Notes: generated by a model from the sequence alone, not told the origin. 64,000 nucleotides of DNA from Vicinamibacteria bacterium (GCA_963743245.1 CAVUPP010000002.1:32513-96512); one strand, 5' to 3'; positions 22,803 through 48,034 are shown, counted from the stretch's first letter. Numbers and translations are program-made.

Positions 22803-22844
22803 CGGACTACGGACTACCGGCGACAGACTCCGGGCTTCGCTCGG
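22803..22844. repeat. Heptanucleotide tandem array, single arm (6 units)
   Basis: Units cggacta cggacta ccggcga cagactc cgggctt cgctcgg, lying between the convergent rarA and protease stops. Confidence 0.6.
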
Positions 22845-22845
22845 G

Positions 22846-23829
22846 TTACCGTCCAAGTGCGACTTCGGTATGGGCCACGTCCGTACCGGTGTGCGTCGCG
22901 TCCGTGGGGATCGTGTCGGCCTGCAGCGCCGTAATCTTCCGGAACATCTCATCGCGAATGGGCAGGATGAACGAGAACCGGTAGTCGCCCTGCATCCGGC
23001 CGATCGGAATGCCGACGAGATCGCCGTTCCGATCCAGCACGCCGCCGCCCGAGACGCCAGGGTGGCCGTCGGTCAGACACGTCACCAGACCGTTGGCGGT
23101 TCGCTGGCCCACGTACCCCGTGGACAGGATGATGCCCTTCGAATAGTCGTTCCCCATCCGGAAGATGGGCTCGGCGAATTCGTACGAGAAGCGTGCGTTT
23201 ATCTTGAGCGCCGGAAGATCGACGGGGTCGTTCACCCTCAGGATGGCCCAGTCGCCGCTGTGTACTTCGACGTCCGCGTCGCCGACGTCCACGATCGAGG
23301 CCGGCACTCGCTTGCCTCCCCACGCCAGGCGCACGGATTCGATCTTGCGGGCCGTCTTCGGTTCGTCGGGGTCGTCCGGCAGCGCCATGACGCCGTGCTT
23401 GACAGTGATGAAGTACCCGTTCCCCAGGTACCCGGCAGTGCCGTAGTTCGTCTTCCCACCGTTGTCGAACGCGTACAGCTCCACGAAGCTCTCGCGACGC
23501 TGGCGCAGGAGCTGGACGGGCAGCAACCCCATTTCGTCCTGCAGCTGACGCTTCACCTCGTTGACGAGGAGATCGCGGCCGCGCATGTTCACCGGTGACG
23601 GATCTTCTCCGAGCACTCCCGACGCGCCGACAGCGGCCGGCGTCCGTTCGAACGTCGCGACCGTGCGGTGCAGCTCAGCGCGCAAGGCGTCGATGCGCGC
23701 GTCGCCCTCGGCGTGCTGGCGAACCAGCAGCCGCTCGGCACTGTACTCGCCGAGCGTGTAGAAGATCACCGCGGTCACCGTGATCAGAGCAGCCGTGACA
23801 ATCGTGCGCCGGACGGACAGGACGGACAT
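22846..23829 (-). CDS. Membrane-anchored trypsin-like (S1) serine protease
   Basis: Start MSVLSVRRTIVTAALITVTAVIFY (TM anchor). Candidate triad: His in FITVKHGV, Asp in GDWAILRV, Ser in GHPGVSGGGV. Confidence 0.7.
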   Translation of the reverse strand: MSVLSVRRTIVTAALITVTAVIFYTLGEYSAERLLVRQHAEGDARIDALRAELHRTVATFERTPAAVGASGVLGEDPSPVNMRGRDLLVNEVKRQLQDEMGLLPVQLLRQRRESFVELYAFDNGGKTNYGTAGYLGNGYFITVKHGVMALPDDPDEPKTARKIESVRLAWGGKRVPASIVDVGDADVEVHSGDWAILRVNDPVDLPALKINARFSYEFAEPIFRMGNDYSKGIILSTGYVGQRTANGLVTCLTDGHPGVSGGGVLDRNGDLVGIPIGRMQGDYRFSFILPIRDEMFRKITALQADTIPTDATHTGTDVAHTEVALGR

Positions 23830-24036
23830 CGAAGTCTCCGCAGTCTCTTGGTCACCAGGCACCGGGCGAGGCCAGAACGCGACACATCGCCTGGAGCGAG
23901 CGTTACTGGTCGTATCGGAGGATGTCAGGTCCGGACTTGACGGGGCAGAACGACCGGTCGCCGGGCACACGCACACGGTGCACGAAACGGCACGGAGGAA
24001 CGGCCTGACGCCGGCAGACATCAGATCCGCGTACAC

Positions 24037-25789
24037 TCAGATCCGCTGAAAGTTCTTCTCTACCTCTCGTTTAGTGATGCGCAGCATGACGGGCCGGCCG
24101 TGGGGACAAACGGTCGAATACGCCGTGGCGCGCAATTCTTCGAGGATGTGTACCATCTTCTCATAGGTTAGTGAATAATTCGCCTTCACCGCTGCATGAC
24201 AAGCGATGGTCGCGGCGATTCTTTTGATCGCATCGTCCACGCGCGAGCCGCGATCGAAGCCCTCGAGATCCTGTGCAAGCGCCCGAACGGCTTCGGATGC
24301 GGACTCACGGCCGAGCAGTACCCGGAACGCTACCAACGCGGACCGCATCGCCGCCGAACTCTTCCACCTCAAATCCTAAACGGTCGAGGTCGCCGGCATG
24401 GGAGACCAATGCCTGCCGTGCGTCCGACGACACCTCAATCAGCAGCGGTTCGAGCAGACGCTGGCTTTCGAGGCGGCCCGACGAGAGCCGCTCCATCGTC
24501 CGCTCGAACAGGATGCGCTCGTGTGCGACGTGCTGGTCGATGATGGCGATGCCGTCTTCGTCCACCGCAATGATGAACGTGTCGCGGAATTGTCCGAGCG
24601 GAATCATCGGACGCGCATCGGGAACGGCTGAGGCTGCGGACGCAAACGCCGGGGCCGCCGGGTCGGGAATCGGGACGATCGGCCGCGGCGTCGATTCGGG
24701 CGCCCATCTCGTCGGTATGACGGTCGTCGCCCATACGCCGGGCAACGATGACTGTCCGGGTTCCGTCAGTGCCGCGACGGGCGCCGTCAGGGTCAACAGT
24801 GGCGCCGGTCCCCGGCCGAGCGCGTCCGCCACAGCCCGCCGCACCACTTCGTGCATCAGCGACTGCTCACGGAATCGGACTTCCGCCTTGGTGGGATGGA
24901 CGTTGACGTCCACCGCGTCGCGCGGCATCTCGATGAAGAGATGCACCTCCGGGCTGCGCTCCTTGATCGACGCCACGCTGTAGGCGTCACCGATGGCGTG
25001 CGCGATCGTCCGATCGCGCACGAGGCGGCCGTTCACGAATACATTCTGCGGCCCCCGGCGAGGCCCCTGCTCGGCCAACGCGGCCACGAAACCGGTGACG
25101 CGAATGCCGGCTGCGTCTTTGGACACGGATACCAGTGAATCGGGATCGCCGTAGAGCTGATACAGGCGCTCTGCGGTATCGCGCGCCGGCGGCACGTCGA
25201 GCAGCCGGCGGCCGGCGCTCGTCAGCGTGAAGCCCACCCCCGGTGCGCTCAGGGCCAGCTGCGTCAACATCCGAGACGCGTGCGTCGTCTCCGCCTGGTC
25301 GGACTTGAGGAACTTCCTTCGAGCGGGCAAGTTGTAAAAGAGATCCTCGACGTCGATCCGGGTGCCTTCGGGAACGCCCGCCTCTGTGACCGCGCCAATC
25401 ACACCTGCGTTGATCCGGATCTCGGTGCCCGTGATCTCTCCACGGGCACGCGTCCGGAGCGTGAAGTGTGCGACCGACGCGATGCTCGGAAGGGCCTCCC
25501 CCCGGAATCCCAGCGTAGCAATCGACGCGAGATCCTCGGCACGGCGGATCTTGCTCGTGGCGTGGCGCTCCACGGCCAGCCGCGCATCCTCCGCCGTCAT
25601 CCCTTCCCCATCGTCCTCGACCCGAACCAGGCGCTTGCCGCCAAACTCGAGCGACACCACGATCCGGCGCGCTCCCGCATCGAGCGCGTTCTCGACCAGC
25701 TCCTTGACGACCGAGGCGGGGCGCTCGACAACCTCACCCGCCGCGATCTGATTGGCGAGCTCGGGCGGCAGGCGGACGATTCGTGCCAT
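24037..25789 (-). pseudogene. mutL: DNA mismatch repair endonuclease MutL, one +1 frame change near the 3' end
   Basis: N-terminal GHKL ATPase (IAAGEVVERPASVVKELVENALDAG), endonuclease motif DQHVAHERILFE, then ...EEFGGDAVRVGSVP. The remaining 100 aa (VLLGRESASEAVRAL...STVCPHGRPVMLRI) are in the frame of ORF 24037..24372. Deleting one c of ccc at 24321-24323 joins them. Confidence 0.88.
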
Positions 25790-46966: not shown

Positions 46967-47050
46967 GGGCTTTGGGCCCTCGGCTTTCGGCTTTGAGATC
47001 AGCCGAGCGCTGCCGGAGTGAGCCCAACGCCTAGAGCCGAGAGCCGCCCT
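46967..47050. repeat. Heptanucleotide array hairpin (12 in-phase units)
   Basis: Units gggcttt gggccct cggcttt cggcttt gagatca gccgagc gctgccg gagtgag cccaacg cctagag ccgagag ccgccct, just after the sucD stop. Confidence 0.8.
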
Positions 47051-47058
47051 CTCGTGCG

Positions 47059-47934
47059 TCATGCACGCGCCAGCCGCCCCTTGAGCGCCTGACCCATGTC
47101 GGCAGGGCTCTCTACGACCGTCACGCCTGCGTCGGACAAGGCCGCCATCTTCTCCGCAGCAGTACCCTGCCCGCCGGCGATGATCGCTCCAGCGTGCCCC
47201 ATCCGACGTCCTGGCGGCGCGGTCTGGCCGGCGATGAACCCCACCACGGGTTTGCTGAACTGCGTCTCGATCCAGGCCGCGGCATCCTGTTCGGCGTTCC
47301 CGCCGATCTCGCCAATCATGATCACCGCATCCGTCTCATCGTCCGCCGCGAACATCGTGAGGGCGTCGATGAAGGACGTGCCAATCAGGGGATCACCGCC
47401 GATGCCGATGCAGGTGGATTGACCGTACCCGAGCCGCGAGAGCTGATGGATCGCTTCGTAGGTGAGCGTGCCGCTCTTCGACACGATCCCGATCCGGCCT
47501 TCCTTGCAGATATGGCCGGGGATGATGCCGGCCTTCGCCTTGCCCGGCGAAATGACACCGGGACAGTTCGGGCCGATGAGGCGCGTGGGCGTGGACTTGA
47601 GGAAGGTCATCGCCCGCATCATGTCGAGCGTGGGGATGCCTTCGGTGATGCACACGACGAGCGGCAGCTTCGCGTCGCCCGCTTCCATGATCGCGTCGGC
47701 CGCAAATGCCGGCGGCACGAAGATGACGCTCGCGTTGGCTCCCGTCTTCCGCACGGCCTCGTCAACGGTGTTGAAGATCGGCCAGCCCTCGTGCGTCGTG
47801 CCGCCTTTGCCTGGCGTCACGCCTCCGACGACCGTCGTGCCGTAGGCCGCCGCCTGTTGGGCGTGGAACGTCCCTTCTCGGCCCGTCAGGCCTTGAACGA
47901 GGAGACGCGTGGATTTGTCCAGGAGGATGGACAT
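47059..47934 (-). CDS. sucD: Succinate--CoA ligase alpha subunit
   Basis: 291 aa. [21 protein letters not shown] and the phosphohistidine loop [10 protein letters not shown]. Confidence 0.96.
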
Positions 47935-47936
47935 AT

Positions 47937-48034
47937 CAGGGCTTCGGCCTACAGGCGACAGGCGACAGGCCGCAGAGGGCCCATTGCCGGAAAGGTCCGC
48001 AGCCTGCAGTCTGAAACCCGCAGCCTGCGGCGAA
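47937..48034. repeat. Heptanucleotide array hairpin (14 in-phase units)
   Basis: Units cagggct tcggcct acaggcg acaggcg acaggcc gcagagg gcccatt gccggaa aggtccg cagcctg cagtctg aaacccg cagcctg cggcgaa. It fills the sucC-stop to sucD-start gap. Confidence 0.85.

Follow-up and report, generated by a model that had tools for sequence, protein, structure and literature searches.

Why should the short spacers within one run of housekeeping genes be filled with tandem heptanucleotides, their units differing from spacer to spacer, and why should so many of these arrays be mirrored into hairpins? The question is raised by 64,000 nucleotides of genome from a soil-living Vicinamibacteria bacterium (GCA_963743245.1, CAVUPP010000002.1:32513-96512), which as a whole we call the window, and in particular by ten elements lying between its positions 22803 and 48034. 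Our analysis indicates that what is invariant in these arrays is their period and not the sequence of their unit, and that the trait belongs to a lineage, the Vicinamibacteria-type Acidobacteriota (more weakly other Acidobacteriota), rather than to this locus. With moderate confidence we read the arrays as products of slippage and inverted duplication in the weakly constrained DNA that follows stop codons, with effects on RNA being secondary.

Heptamer arrays behind stop codons in the window

The window has a GC content of ~65%, and housekeeping genes on its minus strand form a long run at 22-49 kb (mutL, corA, ppdK, glyS, glyQ, recO, era, phoH, aspS, hisS, the gamma-carbonic anhydrase gene (gCA), dcd, a DUF2905 gene, ndk, korB, korA, sucD and sucC), with rarA on the plus strand. 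The original prediction, made from this sequence, had described ten non-coding heptamer loci, nine of them in short gaps of the run and many with inverted arms able to form hairpins. Tandem Repeats Finder (TRF) reports period-7 arrays at 9 of the 10 loci (Table 1). A lag scan of the window moreover yields 12 regions at lag 7, where shuffles that preserve dinucleotides give 1-3, and 11 of the 12 are predicted loci; the remaining region, 10984-11013, is at chance level, with three weak units located in the 3' end of a coding sequence, and was not counted. Lags 4, 5, 8 and 11 give no regions; lags 9 and 10 give 3 and 2, not beyond their own shuffles, and lags 6 and 12 give 6 each, exceeding theirs.

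The predicted family and its enrichment over shuffled sequence are borne out by TRF, lag scan and folds, but not every locus belongs to it as described. Eight of the ten are true lag-7 arrays. The element at 43596-43701 is hexamer-like instead, with no lag-7 signal and 0 of 15 heptamer units resembling a neighbour, and 22803-22844 has only two clean copies, with 2 of its 6 units neighbour-like. The window arrays repeat a 7-nt unit head to tail in at least three copies and above chance, as long simple sequence repeats (LSSRs) do, and 43596-43701 does not. Two loci cannot strictly be called non-coding: 40263-40304 overlaps the end of hisS and 31888-31978 includes the glyQ stop codon. The repeats are imperfect, with match levels of 67-100% in TRF, and 14-nt super-periods are found in 26767, 31888 and 42203. 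The runs of 18, 15, 14, 13, 12 and 11 consecutive in-phase heptamers that had been counted in six of the elements turn out to be inflated by non-repetitive loops; 13, 10, 5, 6, 6 and 8 of these units, respectively, lie within two mismatches of a neighbour, a similarity reached by ~2% of adjacent heptamers in the genomic background. The unbroken 7-nt register said to span arms and loop alike stems from the notation and is free of information. If the frame is shifted by one base, the two arms move by 2 with respect to each other; as 2 has an inverse modulo 7, some common register can be found for any inverted heptamer array. In the second arm the unit appears rotated by 0, 1, 2 or 4 positions, depending on the element, so that no constant holds for the family as a whole.

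On the mRNA (minus) strand, long hairpins are predicted for 7 of the 10 elements (26761, 31888, 40263, 42203, 43596, 46967 and 47937; z-scores of -2.1 to -7.9), as had been proposed, and the predicted folds include stems of at least 20 bp; 38441 and 44788 fold weakly, and 22803 gives no signal. The layout is clearest in 42203-42328, where 8 CRGTCTN units (42203-42258), a 35-nt non-repetitive core and 5 CGNAGAC units (42294-42328) give 25 uninterrupted pairs. The arms of 26761-26837 consist of five GGGNNTT units (26761-26795) and four AAAGCCC-type units (26803-26833), and the complementarity between the two arrays of 44788-44892 is weak. As to location, the predicted nearness to stop codons holds for all ten elements, the upstream stop being overlapped or 0-24 nt away. 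For 6 of the 9 co-directional elements the next start codon lies at most 18 nt from the element end, and the element is then roughly the whole spacer (ppdK-corA, glyQ-glyS, hisS-aspS, dcd-gCA, korA-korB and sucC-sucD). The restriction to 22-48 kb also stands: ~9 of the 12 gaps within 22.7-48.1 kb have an element and 0 of the 17 gaps outside (Fisher p = 2e-5), and the heptamer gaps and the structured gaps of the window are nearly identical sets.

Table 1. The ten elements of the window: arrangement, flanking codons, TRF results (start positions of period-7 calls unless stated otherwise) and predicted folds
Position	Strand	Arrangement	Flanking codons	TRF	Energy (kcal/mol)	z
22803-22844	.	weak member: two perfect CGGACTA copies, then degenerate units; convergent gap	rarA stop (22789) and trypsin-like protease gene stop (22846)	22803; 2.1 copies		0.04
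26761-26837	-	heptamer hairpin occupying the ppdK-corA gap	ppdK stop 2 nt from one stem base, corA GTG 3 nt from the other	26760, 26802	-44.2	-4.47
31888-31978	-	heptamer hairpin, CAGGCTN / CAGCCTG arms; entire glyQ-glyS spacer	glyQ stop TAG 31976-31978 (located by three-frame translation) is its first triplet; glyS ATG at 31886	31886, 31946	-59.7	-4.42
38441-38474	-	single-arm heptamer array, sense TGGGCKT type	immediately 3' of aspS stop (38475)	38441		-1.57
40263-40304	-	GGGCCYT array, self-complementary via GGGCCC	overlaps last ~10 codons and stop (40275) of hisS; ends 9 nt before aspS start	40278; 3.6 copies, 94% matches		-2.21
42203-42328	-	best example: hairpin in the dcd-gCA gap	stop 8 nt upstream, start 5 nt downstream	42203, 42294; periods 7 and 14	-78.7	-7.94
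43596-43701	-	imperfect inverted repeat, ~6-nt periodicity (CGAACA / TTCGTA); korB-ndk gap		period 6 at 43675-43701		-2.14
44788-44892	-	two heptamer arrays, CRGGCTA x4 and CCCTTRC x6; korA-korB gap		44790, 44849		-1.95
46967-47050	-	heptamer hairpin, SGGCTTT / CCNAGAG arms	8 nt past sucD stop	46968		-2.53
47937-48034	-	heptamer hairpin, ACAGGCG x3 / CAGNCTG, occupying the sucC-sucD gap	stop 1 nt upstream, start 2 nt downstream	47951; 2.9 perfect copies	-50.3	-2.32

Three contigs of an independent metagenome (JGI 3300079526), L081, L162 and L163, were found through exact Dcd, KorB and PhoH protein matches (DUF2905, SucD and CorA gave none), and jointly they cover 38441, 42203, part of 43596, and 44788. 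L081 and L162 are 99.2-99.3% identical to the window (L081 99.2%) with zero indels, 44788-44892 shows no differences in L162, L163 matches the window exactly in the aligned aspS-phoH gap, and unit numbers are unchanged throughout. Since four elements recur there without indels, they are not assembly artefacts, a possibility that the original prediction had allowed for; and since no unit is gained or lost at this level of identity, the arrays are not hypermutable at present. Phase-variable contingency simple sequence repeats were considered and ruled out on the grounds of the imperfect arrays, the lack of indels in these contigs and the housekeeping flanks.

The elements do not resemble canonical terminators. 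Hairpins followed by a T-run number 11 in 30-49.5 kb, against 9.8 in shuffles, and none lies at any element. Moreover, glyS, sucD and corA start 1-3 nt past a stem, so that read-through is required and the elements there cannot be efficient terminators. The positions of 38441 and 46967 do appear to be transcript 3' ends, because promoter-like boxes follow them. Between the 38441 array and phoH, 38335-38440 holds a separate GC-rich hairpin (GCTCGCGC...GCGAGCG) and then the box TATGATAGAAT, a sequence identical in L163; 46967-47050 is followed by the box GGTATAAT (~46870-46890) ahead of korA. Scanning the entire window against Rfam at E<=1 turned up no family at the elements, the sole match, 13893-14029, being a chance one. 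Outside 22-48 kb the only strongly structured gaps are 54008-54095 (z -2.7) and the convergent gap 62829-62883, where a strong hairpin without heptamers (55 nt, -29.3 kcal/mol, z -3.1) possibly serves as a bidirectional terminator.

Period, pairing and turnover in related loci

With one genome taken per species, every KorA relative is from the Acidobacteriota. The closest of them, at 76-77% identity, come from metagenome-assembled genomes of Acidobacteriota, Vicinamibacteria or Vicinamibacterales, except for one contig labelled Bifidobacteriaceae. The order sucC-sucD-korA-korB-ndk-dcd is kept in ~30 KorA relatives, and a metagenome scan with SucD found no relative above 86% amino-acid identity. 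We ran TRF on a pool of 162 sequences (1.98 Mb), made up of the window, 80 genome loci, 80 soil-metagenome loci and one strain-level contig, with genes called by a codon-usage caller; individual sequences are given below by their L numbers. Period-7 arrays of at least three copies number 11 in the window, 48 in 33 Vicinamibacteria-like genome loci (where periods 5, 8 and 10 have 3, 7 and 1) and 58 in the soil-metagenome loci (period 8: 26), while 47 other Acidobacteriota loci have 20, with period 6 slightly higher at 24. Seven is the commonest period in the window and in both Vicinamibacteria-type sets, and eight comes second in the soil-metagenome loci; over the pooled 1.98 Mb, too, seven leads and eight follows. 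The density of arrays is ~80-170 per Mb, in loci sampled around this operon region.

An inverted partner lies within 200 nt of 62 of the 137 heptamer arrays (~45%), against 0 in a reverse-sequence control and 13 in a complement-only control. The units themselves are strikingly free, with 94 distinct canonical units among 138 arrays. Units of CRGNCYN type make up 26% against 7% expected, an excess due partly to orthologous elements and to the counting of both arms. The idea that the units are palindromic (CAGNCTG arrays being CTGCAG plus N) was dropped, fully palindromic units numbering 16 among the 138 arrays against 19.5 expected. Array density per kb is 0.67 in co-directional gaps, 0.74 in convergent and 0.20, about threefold lower, in divergent gaps; within co-directional gaps arrays lie nearer to the stop upstream than to the start downstream (medians of 12 nt and 56 nt; p = 0.012). 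The arrays are thus associated with gene 3' ends, in the pattern of repetitive extragenic palindromic (REP) elements and of the heptamers of Xanthomonas. Octamer arrays also occur as inverted pairs (L099:9950-9984/10437-10467, L102:10025-10067/10522-10552 and L152:4502-4592). In L002:12935-13074 a run of N, either a masked stretch or an assembly gap, breaks a GGGGCCA heptamer array that recurs directly after it (13090-13149).

Elements come and go in orthologous gaps, and one may take the place of another. Among 30 relatives the sucC-sucD spacer measures 0-152 nt, falling below 30 nt in 13 of them, and the arrays that relatives have there, TAGTTGT/ACTAACA in L004 and GGGTCGT in L022, are built of units unrelated to those of the window. 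The korA-korB gap holds GGCTCTA/CTAGAGC in L017 and measures 0 nt in many relatives, and the dcd-gCA gap has a CAGCTGG hairpin in L002 where the counterpart in the window is CRGTCTN. In the sucD-korA gap, where the window has a heptamer hairpin, L001:1164-1277 and L089:1350-1444 carry a common octamer hairpin (e.g. CATAGGTC / CCATGCNC) whose two arms differ between these loci by about one and about three units, respectively, and at the same spot L087 has unrelated sequence, beside a conserved korA leader. Judging from these alignments, the evolution of the elements appears to include changes in length by about whole units. The short or array-free orthologous gaps imply that the hairpin is dispensable for expressing these essential genes. 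The korA leader itself (TATAATCAAYAGGTTAGGCGCTTCGCCGACAGGCGCGTGGGAAT) follows the variable hairpin in L001:1320-1385, L087:1160-1216 and L089:~1490-1549; at the corresponding position of the window stands the box at ~46870-46890, and the remainder of the leader is missing.

Origin of the arrays and rival explanations

How could arrays with a fixed period and nearly free units come about? We propose that in a compact genome short-period arrays, mostly of 7 nt and sometimes of 8 or 6, would expand at the DNA level directly past stop codons, with replication slippage adding and removing units of 7-8 nt; the 14-nt super-periods would fit the duplication of blocks through slippage. The mirrored arm would come from intrastrand template switching, or from inverted duplication, over a small pre-existing hairpin, and this would give the anatomy that is observed, in which complementary arrays of unequal unit number flank a core that is non-repetitive and has a small stem of its own. 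Arrays would persist just past stops because the DNA is least constrained there, and divergent gaps, bearing promoters, would keep them out. Lying inside operons, the elements would be transcribed and fold into stem-loops of 25-45 bp, which, not being canonical terminators, would probably either hold up decay or be processed (as RNase III substrates). Where both stop and start lie in the stem base (glyQ-glyS, sucC-sucD, ppdK-corA and dcd-gCA), coupling to the ribosome terminating upstream is probable, since that ribosome would have to open the stem and so expose the next start, making downstream initiation dependent on upstream translation. Such effects would be secondary and dispensable, given that many relatives have gaps of 0-20 nt at the same junctions.

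One may instead suppose that the hairpins are selected as RNA punctuation of operons, blocking 3' exonucleases, being cut by RNase III or coupling translation, and that the heptamers merely lengthen the stems. We regard this as rather unlikely, though there is much that it accommodates well: the stems are highly stable (-44 to -79 kcal/mol, with z down to -7.9), six elements have stop and start codons in or beside the basal stem, inverted partners are strongly enriched, the elements sit close to gene 3' ends in the manner of REPs and cluster in housekeeping operons, and different species have elements with differing units in the same gaps. Selection on the RNA should, however, leave a mark on one strand. 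Comparing minimum free energies in 59 co-directional gaps, we find the sense strand more stable in 29 and the antisense in 30; the mismatches in 18 well-aligned hairpins (591 Watson-Crick pairs) comprise 36 sense G·U against 28 A·C (p = 0.38), in a test able to detect a 2:1 bias; and single arrays have neither G/C nor A/T strand skew, nor a compositional bias of the Rho utilisation (rut) kind. With no sense-strand preference in either G·U pairs or stability, the symmetry of the arrays looks like a property of the DNA. The relatives with sucC-sucD spacers under 30 nt or no korA-korB gap at all also speak against selection for a hairpin, as does the fact that about half of the arrays lack an inverted partner.

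Another explanation would be a mobile family, similar to REPs, to their paired, hairpin-forming form (REPINs) or to miniature inverted-repeat transposable elements, that inserts past stops and later diverges by slippage. The distribution over gap types matches that of REPs, and there are two instances of likeness between separate loci. L070:2439-2571 and L070:12897-13051, 10 kb apart, have arms that are ~90% identical (CTTCGGCTRTCGGGCTTCGGGCTTC...), with variant units in the same order, including the same variant unit; their 60-90-nt loops are unrelated, which does not suit a mobile unit. In addition, window positions 38455-38473 and 47021-47039 have a 19-20-mer (CCCAACGCCTAGAGCC...), extending over three different unit variants, in common with L017:11976-11995, an element in the korA-korB gap of another species. 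Both cases hint at copying between loci, and some copying by gene conversion or mobility is possible on these sequence matches. As a general account we nevertheless find mobility improbable: neither a conserved core nor termini nor a target-site duplication is common to the elements, comparing the ten of the window by BLAST returns one shared 19-mer only, the distinct units number 94, and no transposase was identified in the 64 kb, where no search for transposases was made. L070 is a Terriglobia-type genome, and both of its elements have orthologues in L057 and L059.

Slightly less probable still, in our view, is that the arrays are binding sites of a protein that reads nucleic acid in steps of 7 nt; a cold-shock-domain protein might do so on RNA and, on DNA, a global regulator such as has been proposed for the Geobacter repeats. 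Such a protein would account for a period that is conserved while the sequence is not, and CspB does bind with weak specificity, each protein taking up one heptamer (PMC4679880). The prevalence of CRGNCYN-type units could be taken in the same sense, had it not been inflated by orthologues and the counting of both arms; period-8 arrays are also common, single arrays have no compositional strand bias, and no candidate protein is known. Arrays of G-quadruplexes or i-motifs, on the model of Xanthomonas GGGAATC or Nostoc GGGGATT, we consider most improbable. At least four G3 tracts are present in 26761 (plus strand) and in 44788 (mRNA strand), these being the only two such elements in the window, whereas most units have no G3 tract, among them CRGTCTN, CAGGCTN and ACAGGCG and, in relatives, TAGTTGT, TTCATTC and GCTGAAT.

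Several observations weigh against our preferred reading, that of a DNA-level origin. Slippage by itself yields no mirrored arms, for which a putative template switch has to be invoked; in the covered elements, moreover, unit number did not change at all at 99.2-99.3% identity. The two cases of likeness between separate loci hint at copying. That the elements are concentrated in a single run of housekeeping operons fits poorly and looks functional, and the exact bridging from stop to start between the genes of subunit pairs (glyQS, sucCD and korAB) looks functional as well. Finally, the G·U comparison has just 64 informative mismatches, so that a bias under ~2:1 would escape it, and gene starts in the related loci rest on a crude in-house caller.

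Whatever their origin, the arrays that fill the glyQ-glyS and sucC-sucD spacers, which separate genes of essential subunits, bear on the question of translational coupling across a long folded spacer. On the practical side, the arrays inflate calls of open reading frames (ORFs), as in the hisS tail and in glyQ, and assemblies may break at them. The glyQ gene (minus strand, ORF 31887-33104) appears to be frameshifted at 32140-32170: the family match ends at ~206 of 276 profile positions, and the conserved C-terminus resumes in another frame, from ~32160 to the TAG at 31976-31978. The frameshift may be either a sequencing or assembly indel or real.

Comparison with known systems

Our literature search found no heptamer repeats described for Acidobacteria or Vicinamibacteria. 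The suggestion that such a family would be new to a GC-rich non-cyanobacterial genome is nonetheless contradicted by precedents in Xanthomonas (PMC4692102) and Geobacter metallireducens (PMC2700814). Heptanucleotides were recognised in 2007 by Mrazek and co-workers to be in excess among the long simple sequence repeats of prokaryotes, and to be the most abundant class in many genomes, and polymerase slippage on a contact of ~7 nt has been proposed as the cause, according to the summaries in PMC4679880 and PMC4692102. Those summaries of the LSSR survey describe neither mirrored hairpin arrays nor Acidobacteriota.

The GGGAATC arrays of Xanthomonas (65% GC) come close to what we see. Each genome has 70-75 inverted pairs capable of forming stem-loops (Rehm et al. 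2015, PMC4692102); 65-70% of the arrays lie between co-oriented, 16% between convergent and 7-8% between divergent ORFs, and between related species their positions are conserved while length and sequence vary (PMC4692102). The likeness thus extends to intergenic 7-nt arrays at ~65% GC, to inverted pairing, to a preference for co-oriented gaps and to depletion in divergent ones. It does not extend to the unit, which in Xanthomonas is a single, genome-wide, G-rich one with G-quadruplex potential, whereas here there are 94, most without G tracts. None of the window units (CRGTCTN, CAGGCTN, GGGCTTT, ACAGGCG and GGGCCYT) fits the Xanthomonas/Nostoc consensus GGGAATC or GGGGAYT, nor do the commonest canonical units among the 138 arrays. 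The present arrays are further set apart by having an octamer version and by frequently taking up the whole stop-to-start spacer.

The short tandemly repeated repetitive (STRR) sequences of heterocystous cyanobacteria are likewise intergenic tandem heptamers, with several unit types per genome. Their units are CCCCAGT, TTGGTCA and CAACAGT, mainly in direct arrays. The present arrays differ in that STRR units are defined, mostly direct and from another phylum; the window units are not theirs, and the closest KorA relatives are Acidobacteriota. Paired repeats are few in Nostoc, and heptanucleotides of Calothrix are among the examples cited in the same paper (PMC4692102). Geobacter metallireducens has GGGACCG four times over at 49 sites, as well as fivefold MTYCTGA, and its opposite-strand paired sites, of three tandem repeats each, have variable spacing (PMC2700814); these differ from our arrays in being multicopy families of fixed consensus, some intragenic, read as regulator sites or regulatory RNAs (PMC2700814). 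In marine Beggiatoaceae TAACTGA forms intergenic heptamer arrays beside coding sequences, for which a role in translation has been suggested; the difference is that a single unit is involved, in 169 direct sets versus one indirect, and upstream of starts rather than past stops (PMC4679880).

As regards position, the analogy with REP elements and with the bacterial interspersed mosaic elements (BIMEs) and REPINs built from them is apt, as the original prediction had surmised: here too extragenic hairpins are found past stops, in co-directional and convergent gaps, with divergent gaps depleted and stops nearer than starts. According to Liang, Rudd and Deutscher in 2015, REPs reportedly stabilise upstream mRNA and affect translation when they are ~15 nt or closer to the stop. 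Unlike our arrays, REPs follow one consensus of 20-40 nt across a genome, come with a cognate REP-associated tyrosine transposase (RAYT) and lack internal short-period tandem structure. Many near-identical palindromes of 20-40 nt, the hallmark of REPs, are not found among the ten window elements, whose mutual BLAST matches amount to a single 19-mer.

Thus, the kind of element is already known, and what is distinct here is the phylum, the near-arbitrary unit combined with a fixed period, the octamer form and the occupation of whole spacers. The heptamer excess has been known since 2007; in the earlier systems, with one unit each, period and sequence could not be separated. The present lineage keeps the period (7, sometimes 8) with almost arbitrary units, nearly half of its arrays being mirrored into hairpins, and the combination of a fixed period with free units points to a mechanism that sets length and not sequence. 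That this should be a dedicated 7-nt ruler of the Vicinamibacteria, some polymerase, repair or nucleic-acid-binding machinery that writes or reads mirrored arrays whose hairpins serve as operon punctuation coupling cistrons, strikes us as a long shot; but if it were true, this lineage would separate the question of why seven from that of which sequence, as Xanthomonas, Nostoc and Beggiatoaceae do not.

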